Shown here: positions 1-19,865 of the stretch, one piece after another | Layout: each line of letters starts with the position of its first letter | Position numbering within the stretch: position 1 is the first letter of the stretch | Assembly (NCBI GenBank): GCA_964399335.1 | Contig: CAYNQI010000019.1 | Location: forward strand, 1 to 19,919 | Reading direction: 5' to 3' | Length of the DNA: 19,919 nucleotides | From: an uncultured Thermoplasmata archaeon | Lineage (GTDB): Archaea; Thermoplasmatota; Thermoplasmata; Halarchaeoplasmatales; Halarchaeoplasmataceae | The notes under the pieces: generated by a model | What the model was told of the DNA's origin: nothing | The model's database searches: none | Seen by the model: only the letters and a program-made list of their open reading frames with translations | Made by a program: the position numbers and the translations under genes

Positions 1-298
1 GGTACAGTAACTCAGGTGGTTCGAACTCACCATCTATCTGAACCTCTACAGAGTGGCCATAAAGGGCTCTGATCCTGCCACCGTCGATCTCGAATCGATT
101 ACGGTCACTTTCCATGACTAACTTTTCAATCTTTTCCAAATCGATCCATTCGTAACCGGACTCTTTTAGATGAGATATGACCTCGTTTAGTGGTGCAAAA
201 CCTTCTTCATCCAGTTCTAAATTGGCTGTTCCAGGATCGTGCCTTAATATATATGATAGATGCTTACTCAATTTAGTGAATTTTTCAGATGTTACCAT
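1..298 (-). CDS. kptA: RNA 2'-phosphotransferase (Tpt1/KptA family), runs off the window edge (3' part missing)
   Basis: Not in the ORF track. Manual translation from ATG 298: MVTSEKFTKLSKHLSYILRHDPGTANLELDEEGF...NRFEIDGGRIRALYGHSVEV...EPPELLY. It has the SxxLSYILRH, RF(E) and IRAxYGHS motifs of Tpt1/KptA. Confidence 0.93.
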   Translation of the reverse strand, partial: MVTSEKFTKLSKHLSYILRHDPGTANLELDEEGFAPLNEVISHLKESGYEWIDLEKIEKLVMESDRNRFEIDGGRIRALYGHSVEVQIDGEFEPPELLY

Positions 299-366
299 GA
301 TGTCACTTAACAAATTTGATAGACACATTTATTTATCTTTCGTCACTACATAAACGCGTGGTATCC

Positions 367-636
367 ATGAACATCGCATTCGATTCGGTACTCCTAGGTA
401 TATTACTGGTTTTATCGATCCTAGGAACTATCACCTCTACGATATCTTACTTTCAGTTAAGAACAAGAAAGGTCATGGCGATAACGATTTTATTTAGCAT
501 TTTTCTCATAAAAAGTTCTGTGATGGCGGTCTCAAGGTTATGGTATCCCATCATCTCGAATTCCATAGACCCGATAATTTTAGTTCTAGATATATGTATT
601 TTAGCTGCGCTTTTCCTATACGGTTTTAAGGAGTGA
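367..636 (+). CDS. Small (~89 aa) membrane protein, 3 predicted TM helices; partner of the downstream wHTH regulator (module A)
   Basis: Three hydrophobic stretches; aligns by eye with 19556..19822. ATG 367 is preferred over TTG 316 because it matches the paralog's length and leaves room for a promoter. Confidence 0.8.
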   Translation: MNIAFDSVLLGILLVLSILGTITSTISYFQLRTRKVMAITILFSIFLIKSSVMAVSRLWYPIISNSIDPIILVLDICILAALFLYGFKE

Positions 637-642
637 CACCAC

Positions 643-1149
643 TTGACAGATGACACTTTAGAGCTTGGACCTAGAAAAAAGATCTACCAGACCATAGATG
701 ATTCACCAGGTCTTCATTTGAGGCAGATAGATCGCAAGCTCGATATCCCTCTAGGTACCATAAGGTATCATCTTAGAGTTCTAGAAAAAAAGGATCTAGT
801 CACCTCCAAAAAAGAAGGTAAGTACAAGAGATTTTACGCAAAAGGAAGTATCGATAGGAGCGACAAAAAGATACTATCATCATTAAGAAAAGAGATACCC
901 AGGACCATCATCTTGTTCTTGATGGAGTATCCCCGTTCCACTCACAAAGATATCAACGCAGCATTAGATATCGCACCTTCTACACTCTCGTATCATTTAA
1001 AGAGACTAAAAAACAAAAGTATAATCATCAACAAAAACAAGGAATACAGTATCAAAGACCCGGATAAGATCGCTGACCTGTTGATCCAATATCAACAAAC
1101 TTTCTTGGACAGTTTGGTGGATAGGTTCGTAAGGATCTGGAACAAGTAA
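643..1149 (+). CDS. Tandem winged helix-turn-helix transcriptional regulator (ArsR/MarR-like folds), module A
   Basis: Two HTH units (PGLHLRQIDRKLDIPLGTIRYHLRVLE; STHKDINAALDIAPSTLSYHLKRL). TTG start preceded by GGAGTGA. Paralog of 19013..19546. Confidence 0.88.
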   Translation: MTDDTLELGPRKKIYQTIDDSPGLHLRQIDRKLDIPLGTIRYHLRVLEKKDLVTSKKEGKYKRFYAKGSIDRSDKKILSSLRKEIPRTIILFLMEYPRSTHKDINAALDIAPSTLSYHLKRLKNKSIIINKNKEYSIKDPDKIADLLIQYQQTFLDSLVDRFVRIWNK

Positions 1150-1153
1150 TAGG

Positions 1154-4100
1154 TCATTCATCGTCTTTTGGATCCTTTTTCTTGAACTTGAATATCAATA
1201 GATTAAAAATCAAAATAAATCCTATAGATAGGGTAAATCTTCCAAACTCGAATTCTGGTATTGTGGTAATATCTACAGCCTCGTCGAAGGCACTGCTGTA
1301 ATAAGACCCTACATACAGTGTAGTTTCGTCGGTTACGTTACCAACATCCGCAGGGATCTCGATCTCCAAAGAAACATCGATAGATTCACCGCCGTTCATC
1401 CAACCGGTATCCGGGATACCATCATCAGTGGTGTCCCAGTCAGGGTTCACATGATCCCAATCTCCATCACCGCCTATATCCATAGCGATCAGTTCTCCAT
1501 GCTCGGAATACAGTGACACGTTGAACCCCTGAGAAGAAGTTACAAGCATATGGAATACATCGACGCCTGAACCTGTGTTCTGGATCGTATGTTCGTAAGT
1601 CACGTTACTACCAGCTTGAGCCGTATCGTTATGGTCGGGATACACATCTACACCAGATACCACATCGAACGTACCGTAGCCAAAAGAAGTAACACCGTTG
1701 GACTCGATAGCTTCGATCTTGATATCGTAACTTCCCGTAAGAGCGTCTTCAGGAAGGTCAAAAGAGTGAGTGAAATTCGCCCAGTAAGATGGGTCAGATG
1801 GATCAACTTCATCCAATTCCATCGGTTGGCCGTCTAAAAGCACGGTCCCGTTGGGATCAGATATCGAAACGTTAGCGCCGGCGATATCATAACTTCCTAT
1901 AGGATCACCTATCATAGCCTCGACACTGACTTCCTCACCGGCTGAGAATTCATCAGTTTCCACTTCACCGTCATAGGTTTTAACGTCCAAAACTTCGATA
2001 TATGTATCTGTAAGAACTTCTAACCTGGAATCGTACTCACCGCTGTTGTAAAGAACTGTTATATCAGCTTCACCGGTGGATACCTGTAATTCCAATGGAT
2101 TTCCCTTAGAAATCATGTGATCCGTTGAAAATGAGAAGGTATACCATCCTTCCTCTTCGATGTCGGTGATGGTATCAGTACCTATGACATCGCCTTCCTC
2201 GAATAGAGAAACCGTAACGTCGGGCACTCTATGACCGCTGGGATTAGGATCTATGTATATATGGACTAGAGCACTATCAATTAACGAAAAATCTTCAGCC
2301 ATGTCAGGATCCTGAACCCATAAATTACTCTCACCGGCTTCGATAGTGGTTTCAACGGTATCGTCTCCCATGAAAGTGTTCAAAATATCATCATTAAGCA
2401 AGTAAAATGTTTTCATCTCCTCTGACAAGGGGATCTCCGTAGTGAAAATAGCATCATCGGATACGTCCGTAAAATTCATGGAAACGGCATGTAACTCCGT
2501 CTCGTCTTTCAAACCTTCACTATCCTCTGGAACTACTTTTTCAAAAGAAAAGGTCTTCTCTTGGGTTTCCTCGATGAAGACTTCAAGCTCACCTGCAGAA
2601 TCCCAAGAAGTATCCACCCAATCCCACTCACCAGTACCACCTATATCTTCAGCGATCAAATACCCGTCGTAATATAGATTGGTTGTCCAACCTCTGCTGG
2701 ATACACCCGGTTCCAATTTGTACGAATCGTCGACATTACCTATGTTTTTCACATTTACTGTAAAATTAACTTTTTCTCCAGACTGGGCTATTTCATGTCC
2801 GTCAGGATAAACAGAAACTCCAGGATCATCGGGGATCGAAAAATATGTGACTCCAGTGTGTGCATTGTCCTGGTTATCCCAAGCGTTAACTCTCACTTCG
2901 TAGCTCCCGCTAGGTGTATAATCTTCTAAAATAAATGAATAATTATAAAGTGTGTAAAACGGAGGTTCCTGGCTATCACCATCATAAAATTCCATCTCAT
3001 CCTCTAAAAGGACAGAACCGTCCGGATAATAAACTGTGACTTGGTTTCCCTGGACTAGATCTGTGCTGATAGCATGTGTTACATTCCCCCTGATCTCTAC
3101 TTCGTCACCACCTTCAAAAAAGTCCTGTGACTCCCCGTCCTCATCAAAGGTCTCTACGTCAACCACTTCGATGGTAGTATTGGTCGGTAGCCTCAAGCGG
3201 GAAGCTCTATCTTGGGAATTGTAATATACATCTAACTCCAAAGACTCGGTATCCTCAGGACCAGTGATCGATGTAGTTAGAGTCAGTGATTCACCTTTTG
3301 GGATCTTATGGTAATCTAATTCTAATGGGATAGTGTACCAACCTTCGGAGGATAACCCATCTCTCTCTCCTTGAGATATCACTCCCGATCCTGTCGATAA
3401 AGTTACTCTGACCCCGGGTTTATTAGCGCCCCTAGGAGTGGGATCTAGATAAATCAAAGCCTCCATATCACCAGTTATCTCAAAGTCATCAGCAAACTCC
3501 TCAAACATCCAATCGTGTTCCCTTTCTCCATCTCTATTAACTAAATTCAAAATTGATTCATCAGTACCTCTTTGAGTCCGTAAAACATCGTTACCACGCA
3601 AGTAGAAATTTTGAGTGGTTTCAGTACTAGTGAGTACCATATTTGGACCATCCTGTACTGTGCTCAAAATCACAGAATCTCGATTGGTGCTCCAATCAGA
3701 AGTCACAAAAATAACTTCAAAGCCATCTAAAAGCCCTTCTAACCCATTACACACGAATTCCATAGAATTGCCAGTGATTGCAAAATCTAAATCAATATCC
3801 ATATCCGACCATCTACCACCACTCCATCGCTGAACTTCAAAATCCCGAACCTCACCGTACTGCCCTTTGAACCGTATCTTATACTCAGCCCTTGAACCCA
3901 TTATATCATAACCATCTCCATCACCGCTGTCGAGGTAGACTTCGATGGTATCTTCACCTGTACGTAATGGATCAGGTCTAGGACCGATGTACCTGGAAAC
4001 CTCTCTTCCCCAGTACCTTTCAGGTATCTTTGGATCCTCTGGAATAGTCGTGTTCAACCATTTATCGGGACCATACGGCCAATCAGCGACTCCGTCACCA

Positions 4101-6487
4101 TCTACGTCTGGAAGAAGTTCACCATCAACCTCCACGAACATCTCGGAATCTGGGGTACCGTCGTTAGTAAAGTCATTCGGATAAGGATCATATTTATCCG
4201 GGATCCCGTCACCATCGGAGTCTCTTAGTTCCTCAACATATCGTTCAACACCCTCAGGTATAGCTGTACCCCCAAGGATGTTATCCCGAGTGCTTAACAT
4301 GAAATAACCGCTGTCATCGAACATCTGCATACCATATCTCTTGATGTCGATGCGATCAGGTACATCACTTTCAGGAGCCTCCTCGTACCTTCCCCAATCA
4401 CCAAAGGCACCGTCTATAACCACTTCGTCGGGAACTTCTTCGAAGTAATAAAATCCACCTGAACCAACGATCCTATTCACTGCATCGGACTCTACATCGA
4501 CTATCTCCAACCCCACCATCTTCCCAGCTTCAACAGCAGGCACTCCCGATACAGAGACCCTAAATTCTTCTTCACTCTCAAGCTCCAAAGGAAGATCTAG
4601 TTCAGGGTCAAAAGATATGGATTCGAAATGTTCATCTCCTCTAAACTCCAAGGTTTCTACCTCTACAGGGCCCCCATAAGATCGGAATACGAGTTCGGAT
4701 ACGATAATATCAACACTTTCTAAAACGTCTTTATCTAAACCGCTTTGGTGAACTGTAAGCGATGGTTTATCAGGAGATATTAGCTGTTCAGCCTCAGCTT
4801 CGTTTCCAGTATGGTCCAAAGCTATCAATTGTGAATGAACTTCACGGCCCCTAACATACATATCTGGAAAAGAAAACTCTACCTCATTTCCAGATCTCTC
4901 TATCTCCAATCCTGCAAGATGTCTCCAACCGAACCAATTGTTATCGAGTGTTTCGTTCTCGTATCTGTAAAGCTGGCCGTACACACTATCACCCCATCCT
5001 TGTATCTTGACCATATACTGAGCTTCTAATTCACCGGTTCTATAGAACTCTGATCCATCTCCTGTTTGAATAAAAACATAGACGGCATCCATCCTTTTAT
5101 CGGATCCTCCGACTAAAGCATCCTCTTCCGTCTTAAAATAATAGTTAAGTCGGTCCCGGGACCTTTCTACAGCACATTCAACTATATTTGCACTCGGAGA
5201 GATACCTACCATTTCGATTTCTACCCTATCTACATCTTCCCAATCTTCGAAATCGCCGTCTATGACGATACCTTCATCCGGTTCTTCATAGATAAAAAAG
5301 TGAGCAGAGCCTAATAATATTCCAATTATCAAGAAAAATATCACAGCAGACACAACTGTTTTTTTCCATTTTAAACGGCGTTCTAATGAACGCTTTTCTT
5401 CCCTGAGGCCGTTGATAAAACCAGCCTCACTTTTAGAATCGGTCTTCGAACCGTTCTCCAAACCGTTGATAAAACCAGCCTCACCCTTAGAATCGGTCTT
5501 CGAACCGTTCTCCAAACCGTTGATAAAACCATCATCGTCCTTAAGTTTAGTATCCCCTTTAGATCCGTTTTCTAGTCCATTGATGAATCCGTCTCTCTGG
5601 GAATTCGGAAATCCGCTTAAATTTCTACTTTTTAACTTACGGGGAGATTTAGACAAGTCGAAACCATCCCCTTCGATCGATTTTAAAATATAGTCGACGT
5701 AAACTTTTGCATCTTCAAATTTACCTAAAGAATATATCTTTTTCAAGCGGGTCAAGTGGTTATCTATATCATTTATAAGTTCATCATCATCAAAGTGTTT
5801 TACCTTTTCATTCAGTTTATTTATCGAATCCCCAACAGATTCCATAACATCTATGCCGGACTCTAAATTTTTTAAGACCTCAAAACAGGCATGATATCTC
5901 CCTTCGGCCTCCAACTTTTTAATTTTATTGAGCAGTAAGTTTATCGACCTTATGTGTGATGAATAGATGAATTCTTCCTTCTCAAGGTTATTTATTCTTT
6001 CTCTTACGCCTTTCAATTTCTGATCCAACTCTATCTTTTTCTTTCTGTTATTCACAAATATGTTGACAAGATTTTCACCAATGTCGTGTTTCTTTGACTG
6101 TCTATCGATCATCCCAGATATCTTATTGTAAAATACATTGCCCTTACCAACTGGATGTACAAGTTCGCTTTTACTTTGTACGAATCTACCAACGATACTA
6201 TCTTCAGTTCTACCGTTGATAGTTTCTTCACAATACGGACATGTCTGATCATTTTCGAAATAAAAACCACAACTATCGCACTTCTCAAGATCATCAGTCA
6301 AATCCCTAGCACTCTCTAAAATCATTTTGGCCTTATGATCACCTATCCCAGGTATGTCTTTTAATTTATCATGACCTAATTCTAACAGACCCTCGACTCC
6401 TTTAATCCCTTCCCTTTCATATAAAATTTTAGCGGTTTGGTCCCCGATATATCGGATCCTCTTTAATCTGTTTAGTACCTCATTCAT
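1154..6487 (-). CDS. 1777-aa membrane-anchored surface protein: HhH, Zn ribbon, GFINGL repeats, TM, acidic Ig-like/beta-rich exodomain, PEF-CTERM-like tail
   Basis: Long ORF with SD GAGGAG before ATG 6487. IPGIGxxKA HhH motif, CDSC..CPYC, hydrophobic helix after RRLKWKK, DSDGDGIPD Ca-binding-like motifs, many NxT/S sequons, and terminal IPEF + hydrophobic helix + KFKKK. Confidence 0.9.
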   Translation of the reverse strand: MNEVLNRLKRIRYIGDQTAKILYEREGIKGVEGLLELGHDKLKDIPGIGDHKAKMILESARDLTDDLEKCDSCGFYFENDQTCPYCEETINGRTEDSIVGRFVQSKSELVHPVGKGNVFYNKISGMIDRQSKKHDIGENLVNIFVNNRKKKIELDQKLKGVRERINNLEKEEFIYSSHIRSINLLLNKIKKLEAEGRYHACFEVLKNLESGIDVMESVGDSINKLNEKVKHFDDDELINDIDNHLTRLKKIYSLGKFEDAKVYVDYILKSIEGDGFDLSKSPRKLKSRNLSGFPNSQRDGFINGLENGSKGDTKLKDDDGFINGLENGSKTDSKGEAGFINGLENGSKTDSKSEAGFINGLREEKRSLERRLKWKKTVVSAVIFFLIIGILLGSAHFFIYEEPDEGIVIDGDFEDWEDVDRVEIEMVGISPSANIVECAVERSRDRLNYYFKTEEDALVGGSDKRMDAVYVFIQTGDGSEFYRTGELEAQYMVKIQGWGDSVYGQLYRYENETLDNNWFGWRHLAGLEIERSGNEVEFSFPDMYVRGREVHSQLIALDHTGNEAEAEQLISPDKPSLTVHQSGLDKDVLESVDIIVSELVFRSYGGPVEVETLEFRGDEHFESISFDPELDLPLELESEEEFRVSVSGVPAVEAGKMVGLEIVDVESDAVNRIVGSGGFYYFEEVPDEVVIDGAFGDWGRYEEAPESDVPDRIDIKRYGMQMFDDSGYFMLSTRDNILGGTAIPEGVERYVEELRDSDGDGIPDKYDPYPNDFTNDGTPDSEMFVEVDGELLPDVDGDGVADWPYGPDKWLNTTIPEDPKIPERYWGREVSRYIGPRPDPLRTGEDTIEVYLDSGDGDGYDIMGSRAEYKIRFKGQYGEVRDFEVQRWSGGRWSDMDIDLDFAITGNSMEFVCNGLEGLLDGFEVIFVTSDWSTNRDSVILSTVQDGPNMVLTSTETTQNFYLRGNDVLRTQRGTDESILNLVNRDGEREHDWMFEEFADDFEITGDMEALIYLDPTPRGANKPGVRVTLSTGSGVISQGERDGLSSEGWYTIPLELDYHKIPKGESLTLTTSITGPEDTESLELDVYYNSQDRASRLRLPTNTTIEVVDVETFDEDGESQDFFEGGDEVEIRGNVTHAISTDLVQGNQVTVYYPDGSVLLEDEMEFYDGDSQEPPFYTLYNYSFILEDYTPSGSYEVRVNAWDNQDNAHTGVTYFSIPDDPGVSVYPDGHEIAQSGEKVNFTVNVKNIGNVDDSYKLEPGVSSRGWTTNLYYDGYLIAEDIGGTGEWDWVDTSWDSAGELEVFIEETQEKTFSFEKVVPEDSEGLKDETELHAVSMNFTDVSDDAIFTTEIPLSEEMKTFYLLNDDILNTFMGDDTVETTIEAGESNLWVQDPDMAEDFSLIDSALVHIYIDPNPSGHRVPDVTVSLFEEGDVIGTDTITDIEEEGWYTFSFSTDHMISKGNPLELQVSTGEADITVLYNSGEYDSRLEVLTDTYIEVLDVKTYDGEVETDEFSAGEEVSVEAMIGDPIGSYDIAGANVSISDPNGTVLLDGQPMELDEVDPSDPSYWANFTHSFDLPEDALTGSYDIKIEAIESNGVTSFGYGTFDVVSGVDVYPDHNDTAQAGSNVTYEHTIQNTGSGVDVFHMLVTSSQGFNVSLYSEHGELIAMDIGGDGDWDHVNPDWDTTDDGIPDTGWMNGGESIDVSLEIEIPADVGNVTDETTLYVGSYYSSAFDEAVDITTIPEFEFGRFTLSIGFILIFNLLIFKFKKKDPKDDE
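5409..5590 (-). repeat. Coding tandem repeat: two 54-bp units plus degenerate copies, encoding four GFINGL motifs
   Basis: Units 5409-5462 and 5463-5516 differ at 2 nt. The third unit starts at 5517 with 14 identical nt and then diverges (60 bp). A fourth motif lies at 5577-5590. Confidence 0.95.
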
Positions 6488-16467: not shown

Positions 16468-16857
16468 ATGGCAATGAAAAGGGACGTAGAAGAGCTGTTT
16501 GAGAATTCTATAGAGGCAAACGATATACATGCTATCGCTTTGACATCTAAAAATGGTATACCCATAGCGAGTAAATTAAAAGAGGGAAACGAACATGAAA
16601 GTTTTAGTACCCTATCCGCTACTATACTAGGTGCCTCTGAAGTTATATTCTCAGCATTTAAAAAGGAACAACCAGACGATATATTGATAAAATCAAATGA
16701 CTCTATACTATTGATCAGGGAAATAAAATCTGATTCCGTACTTGCTTTGATGGGAAAATTAAAAGATAAAGATAAACTCATAGAAGTTATGGGTAATATA
16801 TCAAAGGAAATGGAGGATATAATAGAAAATTCTCCTAAATTCGAGGTGGCAAAATGA
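16468..16857 (+). CDS. Roadblock/LC7 (MglB-like) domain protein
   Basis: 129 aa; IALTSKNGIPIAS and FSTLSATILGASE match the Roadblock/LC7 pattern. SD GGAG at 16455-16458. Confidence 0.85.
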   Translation: MAMKRDVEELFENSIEANDIHAIALTSKNGIPIASKLKEGNEHESFSTLSATILGASEVIFSAFKKEQPDDILIKSNDSILLIREIKSDSVLALMGKLKDKDKLIEVMGNISKEMEDIIENSPKFEVAK

Positions 16858-18368
16858 CAAATGTAGAAGGTATTCCAAAAGAGATAATAGAATTTTTAAA
16901 AAAAGGTGGTGGATCATCCCTATTCCTTAAGGGTTCTGCAGGAACAGGTAAAACAACTTTAGCACTACAATTGATCGAAGAGATGGGACATCCTGATAAG
17001 AGTTTTTATCTATCAACTAGGGTATCGGATCAAAGCCTATACAATCAATTTCCATGGCTGGAAGAAAAAGAGATGAGGAGTAGAATTTTAGACTCAAGTA
17101 AAATATTTTTAGAAACGATTTATTCTGACGAAGAAAAAGAAGATGAAGATGAATTACCAGAATCTGAAAAAAAGAAAATAGAATCTGCGAGGAAATTTTT
17201 AGATAATATCGAAGAAAGAGGGGTTCCTGAAAAAGTCGATAGAACTCATCTAAATAGCTTAGATGAAAAAATACCTTCTTTAGTAAGGATATATGACAGG
17301 ATAGACAATATATTACCTGAAAGACCTATGTTGGTCATCGATAGTATTGAAGGTATTACAAGTAAATATGGTATCGATGAGGAAACTTTTATAATGACTC
17401 TTCAAAAGGATCTTGCTGAAAACTCTAATACAAATTTGATAATGGTTTTAGAAAAATCCGATGCAAAATCTTTAGAGTACTTAGTAGATGGTGTAACAGA
17501 ATTGAATAGGTACCAGTTAGATAAGAGAAATGTTCGAGAGATAAGGATGATAAAATTAAGAGGTATCGGTATAAAACAACCATCTTATCTCATGACCTTA
17601 AGCGGCGGCAGATTCAAATGCTTCGAACCCTATCAAATACCTGAAACGGGTGAATTAGAATGGGAATCTTTAGAGACTACAGAAGGTAAATACAGCACGG
17701 GGACTAAAGATCTCGACGATATCCTCAACGGTGGATTTGATAAAGGAACTTACAACGTTTTCGAGGTTAAAGAAAATGTCAGTAACGAGGAATATTTCTC
17801 GGTTATAAGACCAATATTTTTAAATTTCTTGACAAAAGATCGAGGCGTTCTTGCTGTTCTCTCCGGAGGTACACATCCAGAGAACCTAAGAGATGACTTA
17901 ATACGGTTTATTAATCCAGAACGATTCAACGAACGTTTTAGAATTGTGGACTACTTTACACCAGATACAGATAAACCATATATGATGGCACTAGGTGGTA
18001 AGAGTAGAGACGAAGTTGGACAGATATATTCTAAACACATAAGCGAGATCAGGGGTGAGGAAGATAGACCCCTATTAGAATACACTGGGTTCGATACCAT
18101 GGAGTATCTGATGGGTAACGAAATCGCCATAAAAGAACTCCTTGAGGCCGTGGCAAATACCAAGGCATCTAACAAGTTAGGTATCGGTATAGTTAAGCAT
18201 GGATTGAAAGTTGCTAGTGAAATCAAGAACATGGCTGACAACTACTTCGTGATAGCTAGCATAAACAAAACACCCTGTATATATGGTATCAAACCAAAAA
18301 CTGGACTCTATGCCATAGTCAGTGAGGAAAAGAGGATCCCACATATAGATTTAGTTCCGATCATGTGA
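16854..18368 (+). CDS. Two-domain RecA-superfamily ATPase, GvpD/KaiC-like
   Basis: Domain 1: GSAGTGKTT Walker A, LVIDSIE Walker B, KLRG arginine finger. Domain 2 starts STGTKDLDDILNGG but has no GK[TS]. ATGA overlap with the Roadblock gene. Confidence 0.85.
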   Translation: MTNVEGIPKEIIEFLKKGGGSSLFLKGSAGTGKTTLALQLIEEMGHPDKSFYLSTRVSDQSLYNQFPWLEEKEMRSRILDSSKIFLETIYSDEEKEDEDELPESEKKKIESARKFLDNIEERGVPEKVDRTHLNSLDEKIPSLVRIYDRIDNILPERPMLVIDSIEGITSKYGIDEETFIMTLQKDLAENSNTNLIMVLEKSDAKSLEYLVDGVTELNRYQLDKRNVREIRMIKLRGIGIKQPSYLMTLSGGRFKCFEPYQIPETGELEWESLETTEGKYSTGTKDLDDILNGGFDKGTYNVFEVKENVSNEEYFSVIRPIFLNFLTKDRGVLAVLSGGTHPENLRDDLIRFINPERFNERFRIVDYFTPDTDKPYMMALGGKSRDEVGQIYSKHISEIRGEEDRPLLEYTGFDTMEYLMGNEIAIKELLEAVANTKASNKLGIGIVKHGLKVASEIKNMADNYFVIASINKTPCIYGIKPKTGLYAIVSEEKRIPHIDLVPIM

Positions 18369-19016
18369 TCAATATCCGTATTCTCCTTTCAAAGGTACGA
18401 ACAATACCCCACCCAAATCCTTTTTCTTTATTTTATTCTCCTCGGTTTTAACTGCTAGTATTAAGTTCTGATAGAAAGAACCTCCAACAGGTATCAGTAT
18501 CTTGCCACCGATCTTTAATTGCTTTAATAAAGGTGGAGGTATCTCCGGAGCACCACAGGCAACTGAAATACGGTCATAGGGGGATTCCTGTTTAAATCCT
18601 TTAGAACCGTCGCCAATTACGACTTTAACATTACTGTATCCAGCCCCTTTTAAGACTGTTTTTGCATCACTAGCTAGTGATTCCAATAATTCCACTGTGA
18701 TAACTCTACCTTTTTCACCAACTACTTCTGCAATAACGGCAGCATGATATCCTCTTCCTCCTCCGATCTCTAAGACCTTTTGACCTTCTTTTAAATCTAA
18801 ATTCTCCACCATCATTGCAACCATATGTGGAGCGGAAATAGTCTGACCCTGGCCGATGGGTTGTGGACTATCTACATAAGCCCTCGACTTAACATTTTCT
18901 GGTACGAATAGGTGTCTAGGTACTTTGCTCATAGCCATTTCAACTTGCTCACTTTCTATATATCCATGGCGTTTCAGTCTTTGAACAAGTTTGGACCTTT
19001 CATGTTCATAACTCAT
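18369..19016 (-). CDS. pcm: Protein-L-isoaspartate O-methyltransferase
   Basis: VPRHLFVP, GQTISAPHMVA, VLEIGGGRGYHAA, GDGS.G and GG.ILIPVG motifs. ATG 19016 gives an ATGA overlap with the upstream regulator (ATG 19034 is less likely). Confidence 0.95.
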   Translation of the reverse strand: MSYEHERSKLVQRLKRHGYIESEQVEMAMSKVPRHLFVPENVKSRAYVDSPQPIGQGQTISAPHMVAMMVENLDLKEGQKVLEIGGGRGYHAAVIAEVVGEKGRVITVELLESLASDAKTVLKGAGYSNVKVVIGDGSKGFKQESPYDRISVACGAPEIPPPLLKQLKIGGKILIPVGGSFYQNLILAVKTEENKIKKKDLGGVLFVPLKGEYGY

Positions 19017-19546
19017 TTTTTCATCTCCAGCCATGTATCGACGAATCTGTCAACCGCTTTATCGATAAATGAAGCTTTATAGGTTATAAGTACTTGGGCG
19101 ATTTTATTTTCGTCGGAGCAGTAAAAAATTTTCTTCCTCCCTTGTTTCTTAAAATCTATCAATCCTTTCTCGTTGAGTTTTTTCAGGTGAAAAGAAAGTG
19201 TGGATTTGGATATGTCTACATCTTTAAGTATATCTGAGAAACCGGCTTCACCTTCATTCAGAAGCTTGATAAGGATCTGTCGTGGTATATTTTGCCTTAG
19301 AATCGAGATTATCTTCCTATCGGGATAATCAACTTCATCATCTACGAAATAGCGTTTTTTGTTATCGGCCATTTTACTTGAGAGAATACCTTTGTCTTCA
19401 AGGTATTTTAAGTGATATTCTGCTTGACCCATTGAAATATCTAAATCGCTTTGAATCTCTCTAAGATAAGTACCGGGATATTTGGATATTTTATCGAAAA
19501 TATCTCTCCTGACCTCTAATTCCAGGGCCTCTTTTCTCTCATTCAT
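19013..19546 (-). CDS. Tandem winged helix-turn-helix transcriptional regulator, module B
   Basis: Two HTH units (PGTYLREIQSDLDISMGQAEYHLKYLE; FSDILKDVDISKSTLSFHLKKL). Paralog of 643..1149. Confidence 0.88.
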   Translation of the reverse strand: MNERKEALELEVRRDIFDKISKYPGTYLREIQSDLDISMGQAEYHLKYLEDKGILSSKMADNKKRYFVDDEVDYPDRKIISILRQNIPRQILIKLLNEGEAGFSDILKDVDISKSTLSFHLKKLNEKGLIDFKKQGRKKIFYCSDENKIAQVLITYKASFIDKAVDRFVDTWLEMKK

Positions 19547-19822: not shown

Positions 19823-19851
19823 GATATCACAAATCTGGAGTGTTCTAATCG

Positions 19852-19865
19852 TTTAAAGTTTTTTC
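19852..19865 (-). promoter_or_regulatory. Putative BRE/TATA promoter of module B
   Basis: Minus strand reads GAAAAAAC TTTAAA, with the TATA element ~30 nt upstream of ATG 19822. Confidence 0.5.

Follow-up and report, generated by a model that had tools for sequence, protein, structure and literature searches.

Repressors of the ArsR/SmtB family are typically encoded in the operon that they control, together with membrane exporters, and their alpha5 helix is a dimer-interface and allosteric element. The canonical members (SmtB, CzrA, HlyU, BigR and SqrR) are single-domain homodimers, with metal or thiol ligands provided by Cys in alpha3N and by His, Asp or Glu in alpha5. Winged-helix repressors are also combined with a membrane protein in the BlaI/BlaR1 and MecI/MecR1 systems, where the membrane partner is a sensor-protease. 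In Bacillus subtilis, SdpI, a multi-pass immunity and signal protein of the membrane, sequesters the ArsR-type autorepressor SdpR, and mutational data are reported to imply that a 3-TMS half of SdpI binds the repressor on the cytoplasmic side (PMC2910880).

The window analysed here, a stretch of 19,919 nt that makes up the whole of contig C19 in a 1.57 Mb, 80%-complete metagenome-assembled genome, carries two copies of a gene pair joining a small protein of three transmembrane (TM) helices to a regulator with tandem winged helix-turn-helix (wHTH) domains. Near-identical public proteins carry the name 'Candidatus Saliniplasma sp.' (Thermoplasmatota). In pair A, on the forward strand, the gene for an 89-aa membrane protein (P0001; 367-636), a diverged DUF7471-like protein, precedes by 6 nt that of a 168-aa regulator with a TTG start (P0002; 643-1149). 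Pair B, on the reverse strand, encodes an 88-aa membrane protein (P0004; 19556-19822) and, after 9 nt, a 177-aa regulator (P0003; 19013-19546). Both pairs were found where the original prediction had placed them and in identical order, membrane gene first, and a GGAG sequence falls within the last two codons of either membrane gene. The whole-length similarity claimed for the two regulators was borne out by an end-to-end alignment at 40% identity (E 5e-41), and identity between the membrane proteins is 32% (E 3e-5). The pairs lie in inverted orientation with ~18 kb between them, and since the same inverted arrangement is present in a second genome of the genus (G404, contig C2), it is not an assembly artefact.

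The pair resembles SdpR-SdpI in combining, within one transcript and without a kinase, a wHTH repressor of the ArsR type and a small polytopic membrane protein with a 3-TMS unit. The two systems differ in gene order, which is reversed, in the regulator, which in the window is a tandem two-domain chain and not a single-domain homodimer, and in the absence of any secreted ligand gene near the window copies. Moreover, no match to the SdpI family was found at E <= 1 in 27 members of the membrane-protein family, and the window regulators score 43.6 and 43.4 bits on the SdpR model NF033789, below its cut-off of 100 bits. The original prediction had held that no characterised mechanism was known for such a pair. 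This was put too strongly, since the sequestration of SdpR by SdpI is a characterised precedent for its logic (PMC2910880). The BlaI/BlaR1 and MecI/MecR1 systems are comparable in their combination of parts, and weak matches to Penicillinase_R were obtained for both regulators (P0002, 22.8 bits; P0003, 24.0 bits; cut-off 22.6). Their counterpart in the window is, however, an 88-89-aa protein without a zinc-protease or sensor domain, and nothing suggests proteolysis.

The N-terminal wHTH of both regulators belongs to PF24266 (HTH_HVO_0163_N), on which regulator A scores 61.3 bits and regulator B 57.2 bits, above the curated cut-off of 31 bits and also in a whole-genome search. The second wHTH is of the ArsR type (HTH_5/HTH_24) in both; on the NCBIfam ArsR/SmtB model NF033788 (cut-off 55 bits), regulator B scores 65.2 bits and regulator A 49.7 bits. 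An AlphaFold2 model of regulator B, computed with 40 homologues (pLDDT 88.9, pTM 0.72), contains two winged helices followed by C-terminal helices at residues 146-155 and 163-176. The nearest folds to the first domain are the Pyrococcus heat-shock regulator Phr and ArsR (Z ~12), and model residues ~52-177 align to the whole ArsR/SmtB chains HlyU, BigR, CzrA and SmtB (VIA Z 10.8-12.0). In Foldseek searches, no high-TM-score match spans both winged helices, and good matches are confined to single domains (TMt ~0.7). Six genomes of the family carry orthologues of regulator A at 64-85% identity. For one family member, the structure of the N-terminal winged helix is already available, since PDB 5DUK (a 77-aa 'putative DNA binding protein') matches positions 2-76 of the regulator profile (E 3e-23); this structure covers the first regulator domain only, and neither a paper on it nor attached functional information was found.

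The conserved C-terminal helix had originally been placed outside both HTH units. Because whole ArsR/SmtB chains align over residues ~52-177, it is instead the counterpart of ArsR alpha5 and part of the second domain. The second domain and C-terminal helices superpose on whole chains of canonical ArsR/SmtB proteins, SqrR included (Z 10.8-12.0), and the family departs from them in its additional Phr/ArsR-like wHTH fused at the N-terminus, by which a single chain takes the place of the homodimer, in its obligate membrane-protein neighbour, and in its lack of conserved metal or thiol ligands at the alpha3N and alpha5 positions. The motif quoted in the original prediction does correspond to the conserved core of the family in a 40-sequence alignment, where L8, L10, R13, P24, G25, Y44, H45, L46, T116-S118, H120, Y156, D162, V165, F168 and W172 are near-invariant and the recognition-helix motif reads S-T-L-S-x-H-L. 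The same alignment contains no conserved Cys and no conserved His beyond the recognition helices (H45, H120), and Pfam profiles detect no ligand-binding or sensor domain in the window regulators. Given the absence of a ligand domain and of conserved Cys/His metal ligands, a protein partner is the most plausible input for these regulators.

Such a partner could also act as a constitutive anchor, the small membrane protein tethering the regulator and its bound DNA in a structural or localisation role, with no switching in response to a signal. The stoichiometric coupling of the two genes and a membrane protein devoid of a sensing domain would fit this arrangement, and ScpB and RPC62, which are tandem winged-helix proteins, appear as weak fold neighbours of the regulator. 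These fold matches are nonetheless poor (TM ~0.3), the domains are ArsR/Phr-type repressor modules with the S-T-L-S-x-H-L recognition helix, and the module resides in ordinary operons with cargo such as pcm. We therefore regard a purely structural role as improbable.

Three membrane helices are predicted in the membrane protein by both hydropathy and AlphaFold2 (residues 2-30, 33-57 and 67-88; pLDDT 86-97). The loop after TM1 is strongly basic, so that the N-terminus would lie outside and the C-terminus, of two residues, inside the cell. The outer loop, modelled with low confidence, is short and differs in length between sequences. No extracytoplasmic domain is present in the protein, and any signal would therefore have to be sensed inside the membrane. 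The best-conserved positions are S26, Y/F27, R/K29, F42, K48, G49, D74, L81 and Y82, and across 318 sequences the strongest conservation is concentrated where TM1 and TM3 reach the cytoplasmic side. Positions 48 (TM2) and 74 (TM3) covary in the same set, uncorrected for phylogeny: K-D occurs in 185 sequences and E with T, S or N in 59, and K or R at position 48 lacks an acidic partner at position 74 in 3 of 318. In sequence terms, this pattern indicates a TM2-TM3 contact through a buried polar pair.

Neither window membrane protein has a Pfam match of its own, and P0001 and P0004 give no match to DUF7471 (PF24283; cut-off 27 bits) at E <= 1. Sub-threshold matches to DUF7471 were nevertheless returned for 20 of 27 relatives (best E 1.7e-5), both window proteins are recovered by a family profile constructed from relatives (with E 1e-21 for the close P0006 and 4e-13 for P0001), and a language-model search suggests a relation to DUF7471, DUF7521 and the bacterial DUF5985. 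By their sequences, the window proteins rank as distant DUF7471 relatives and not as members by the curated rule. The family comprises 757 clusters at E <= 1e-3; the best 150 of these are all 70-126 aa long and include no natural fusion of the membrane protein to the regulator.

The size of the membrane protein and its N-out/C-in topology of three TM helices resemble those of class I holins, and an ArsR-family repressor of the holin-like LrgAB is reported (PMC11009283). This raises the idea of a holin-like or toxin-like protein held in check by its repressor, in a lysis, addiction or defence module, for which that repressor would be a parallel. The C-terminal tail of only two residues does not fit this idea, nor do the housekeeping contexts of the pair and its wide distribution across the sampled families (216 of 401 genomes), and no PHROG family was matched by either membrane protein. 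A holin or phage origin was rejected on this last result, and a module of this kind is highly improbable.

The regulator was detected in 216 of the 401 Thermoplasmatota genomes sampled. Among regulator loci of this phylum sampled regardless of their neighbours, a membrane gene lies directly upstream and on the same strand in all 29 of the best loci with upstream DNA (a thirtieth, L028, was left out of the count because a contig end cuts its upstream DNA), and directly upstream in all 18 lower-scoring loci from other families. The adjacency test put forward in the original prediction hence yields a nearly obligatory pairing, with 47 of 47 sampled loci (29 + 18) and with 12 of 12 membrane matches adjoining a full-length regulator in the five genomes that were enumerated completely. 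In these five genomes a partner is present for 12 of 14 full-length regulators, the two exceptions (L045 and L046) being located in one genome, and no membrane partner accompanies the ~40 shorter tandem-wHTH paralogues, which form parts of larger proteins. At L046 (G007:C79, 1997-2680), the gene after the partnerless regulator encodes a 228-aa protein with one TM segment and a C-terminal domain rich in Cys, which may be an alternative membrane partner. The membrane gene had been missed or annotated on the wrong strand at several of the best 30 loci. In the public record of GCA_020697715.1 (L010), the membrane gene at 2689-2958 is likewise uncalled and a 74-aa ORF on the opposite strand is called instead; the family is probably under-annotated in public records.

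Genomes contain from one to four or more pairs and, one pair excepted, the spacers observed range from -4 (an ATGA overlap) to 45 nt, so that translational coupling is frequent. The two proteins have diverged in step, distances among the membrane proteins following those among the regulators (Mantel r 0.85, 0 of 2000 permutations). Pairs of the A type and of the B type both occur across the family, indicating that the duplication that separated them is old.

The module is not restricted to the Thermoplasmatota. A tblastn search of the regulator against plasmids returned 54 records, all from Halobacteria, 51 of which cover at least 80% of the query. The haloarchaeal regulators are 27-34% identical to those of the window over 88-97% coverage, C-terminal helix included, and score 75-136 bits on PF24266. 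The same layout was found in eight of ten inspected haloarchaeal plasmid loci: in four (L067, L092, L093 and L095) a bona fide DUF7471 gene (91-107 bits) abuts the PF24266 regulator, and in four others a weakly similar or unclassified membrane gene of 95-109 aa occupies the same position. Of the remaining two, one (L068) has nosL between a bona fide DUF7471 gene and the regulator, and one has no membrane gene beside the regulator. The Haloferax volcanii control genome matches both Pfam families above their cut-offs, and Haloarcula marismortui plasmids carry the pair.

Like those of the window, the haloarchaeal DUF7471/PF24266 pairs present a 3-TM gene followed by the regulator, often with a 4-nt overlap; this shared layout defines one conserved module over at least two archaeal phyla. 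Unlike them, the window membrane proteins miss the DUF7471 cut-off, and the window copies belong to a separate, uncatalogued Thermoplasmatota subfamily. The literature search returned no paper on DUF7471, a mention of HVO_0163 solely in an acetylome survey, and no tested function for any member of DUF7471 or PF24266. Given that members of the pair are hardly ever found apart in either phylum, it is very likely that they act jointly, as a membrane-controlled gene switch. The earlier view of the two genes as a functional unit, with no kinase involved, is supported.

Several haloarchaeal pairs (L065, L066, L068, L090, L091 and L093) adjoin envelope copper and redox genes. These neighbours include nosL/nosD/ABC genes, a plastocyanin/azurin gene with a metal transporter, an ApbE FMN transferase gene with one for a thrombospondin-repeat protein, and a PepSY protein gene, and they may hint at the regulon of some subfamilies.

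Haloarchaeal contexts of this kind would also suit a regulatory circuit in which the two proteins never touch, the 3-TM protein being a regulated effector, such as a small oligomeric channel for ions or solutes or a membrane-stress protein, that makes use of the buried Lys/Asp pair, and the regulator an ArsR-like autorepressor reading a cytoplasmic cue. The usual sharing of an operon between ArsR/SmtB repressors and membrane exporters provides a model for this, the conserved charged pair within the membrane fits a transport or channel role, and no covariation signal for an interface was obtained (see below). An autorepressor with its own cue is nevertheless difficult to reconcile with a regulator that has no ligand pocket, metal ligands or sensor domain, and the membrane protein matches no transporter family. 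The pairing is in addition strictly one-to-one, with ATGA-type coupling, and has been kept through duplication to four or more pairs; because this is more typical of interactors, interaction is favoured over an effector role, which we consider rather unlikely.

The interaction that we favour was adopted by analogy with SdpR-SdpI: the membrane partner would bind the regulator and thereby control its availability for DNA, a proposal to which we assign about an even chance of being correct. We infer a physical interaction because the regulator has no input domain and strict cognate pairing is typical of interactors. Each copy would then be a self-contained membrane-to-DNA switch. With its two ArsR/Phr-type winged helices, the regulator chain would form a built-in pseudo-dimer that binds DNA and most likely represses its own operon, including the co-transcribed pcm in copy B. 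The 3-TM protein, translated from the shared mRNA just ahead of the regulator, would bind it at the cytoplasmic face of the membrane and set the amount that is free for DNA. Since the membrane protein has no soluble domain, the input would come either from another membrane protein or from the membrane itself, for instance from its lipid or ion state. A candidate sensing element is the pair formed by the buried Lys of TM2 and Asp of TM3. On the regulator, the candidate contact is the acidic, alpha5-like C-terminal helix; opposite it would lie the basic juxtamembrane loop (S-Y-x-R...K) and TM3 with its L-Y-L end.

The C-terminal helix had been singled out from the start as the obvious docking candidate, and the data bear on it in two directions. 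With a charge of -2.2 it is the sole acidic segment of the regulator, and the cytoplasmic loop of the partner carries +4.4. The charges of helix and loop anticorrelate across pairs (r -0.41, as against -0.18 to +0.07 for other segments, without correction for phylogeny). On the other hand, inter-protein mutual information shows no enrichment at the C-terminal helix or at loop 1 (0.89x expectation), in an underpowered set of 74 pairs with ~63 effective sequences. An artificial read-through fusion of pair B, with the TGA read as W and an alignment of 15 paired and 58 unpaired rows, was folded at pLDDT 91.6 and pTM 0.69; in this construct TM3 runs on into the first helix of the regulator, and the confidence of the C-terminal helix is unchanged (83, versus 77-83). 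The C-terminal helix is hence weakly indicated as the docking site.

Programmed read-through to a fused regulator was considered in its own right, as the two genes of each window pair share a reading frame that is interrupted by one TGA only. It was rejected because only 23 of 53 pairs are in frame, because the orthologue L008 has TGA TAA TAA, and because many pairs overlap as ATGA.

Both window pairs are preceded by promoter elements ~30 nt 5' of the ATG of the membrane gene. For pair A, a BRE/TATA-like block (318-337, forward strand) contains the TATA-like sequence TTTATTTA at 328-335, and is kept in A-type orthologues from six further genomes of this family, where its flanks diverge. For pair B, the BRE/TATA element GAAAAAACTTTAAAC lies at 19851-19865 on the reverse strand, and its GAAAAA and TATA-like box are kept in the B-type orthologues of six other genomes; a second, upstream copy of CTTTAAAG is conserved within the genus only. 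Orthologue comparison revealed no conserved element beyond BRE/TATA in either promoter that could serve as operator. Two candidates were rejected, the GATA..TATC symmetry of promoter A because its spacing varies and the CTTTAAA direct repeat of promoter B because its conservation stops at the genus.

The promoter region between pair A and the divergent kptA gene (RNA 2'-phosphotransferase) is very short (window 296-328 and 318-337). If the longest kptA ORF were used, translation would begin at 328, within the TATA-like box of pair A; a start at the Met at 298 is more likely.

In copy B, the operon extends to a third gene, pcm, which encodes a protein-L-isoaspartate O-methyltransferase (18369-19016, reverse strand; PF01135, 242 bits). 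Its ATG at 19016 overlaps the stop codon of regulator B as ATGA (19016-19013). The longest pcm ORF starts at 19034 (18369-19034, reverse strand), and the start at 19016, which gives the length of the L008 orthologue, is probably the real one judging from this comparison and from the ATGA overlap. The order membrane gene, regulator, pcm is shared by five of the six further family genomes checked (L008, L082, L083, L084 and L086, not L070); pcm is present in none of the wider loci, and was rejected as a universal third gene.

Convergent with pcm (16468-18368, forward strand) are a Roadblock/LC7 gene and the gene for a 504-aa GvpD-like/KaiC-like ATPase (PF07088, PF20440), a neighbourhood also seen beside the B-type operon in L008, L082-L084 and L086; no gas-vesicle genes lie within the window. 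Copy A has no co-directional cargo gene. Regulator A is convergent with the gene for a 1777-aa surface protein (1154-6487, reverse strand), their stop codons being 5 nt apart. This protein carries a helix-hairpin-helix domain at its N-terminus, repeats of the GFINGLENGSK type and, near residue 370, a TM segment. Its extracellular part is very large and acidic, and a TM anchor lies at the C-terminus. Its gene is kept beside the A-type pair within the genus only (L072).

Little is understood of how signals from the archaeal envelope or membrane reach transcription, and two-component systems are few or absent in many lineages. The pair is small and very widespread, with 757 clusters of the membrane family, a regulator in 216 of 401 genomes of the phylum and many haloarchaeal replicons. 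Both of its halves are already catalogued as uncharacterised Pfam families (domains of unknown function), and its likely logic has a bacterial precedent in SdpR-SdpI. More specifically, the pair could mediate one-step archaeal transmembrane signalling, in which the 3-TM protein senses membrane potential, pH or lipid state through the Lys-Asp pair and grips alpha5 of the pseudo-dimeric repressor; we put this version forward tentatively, as less likely than not. If it holds, Thermoplasmatota and Halobacteria would share a signalling logic distinct from that of two-component systems, present as one to four or more pairs per genome. The close relatives in cultivated haloarchaea make the proposed mechanism open to genetic study there. 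In the organism of the window, copy B would couple the protein-repair enzyme Pcm to whatever its membrane partner reports.
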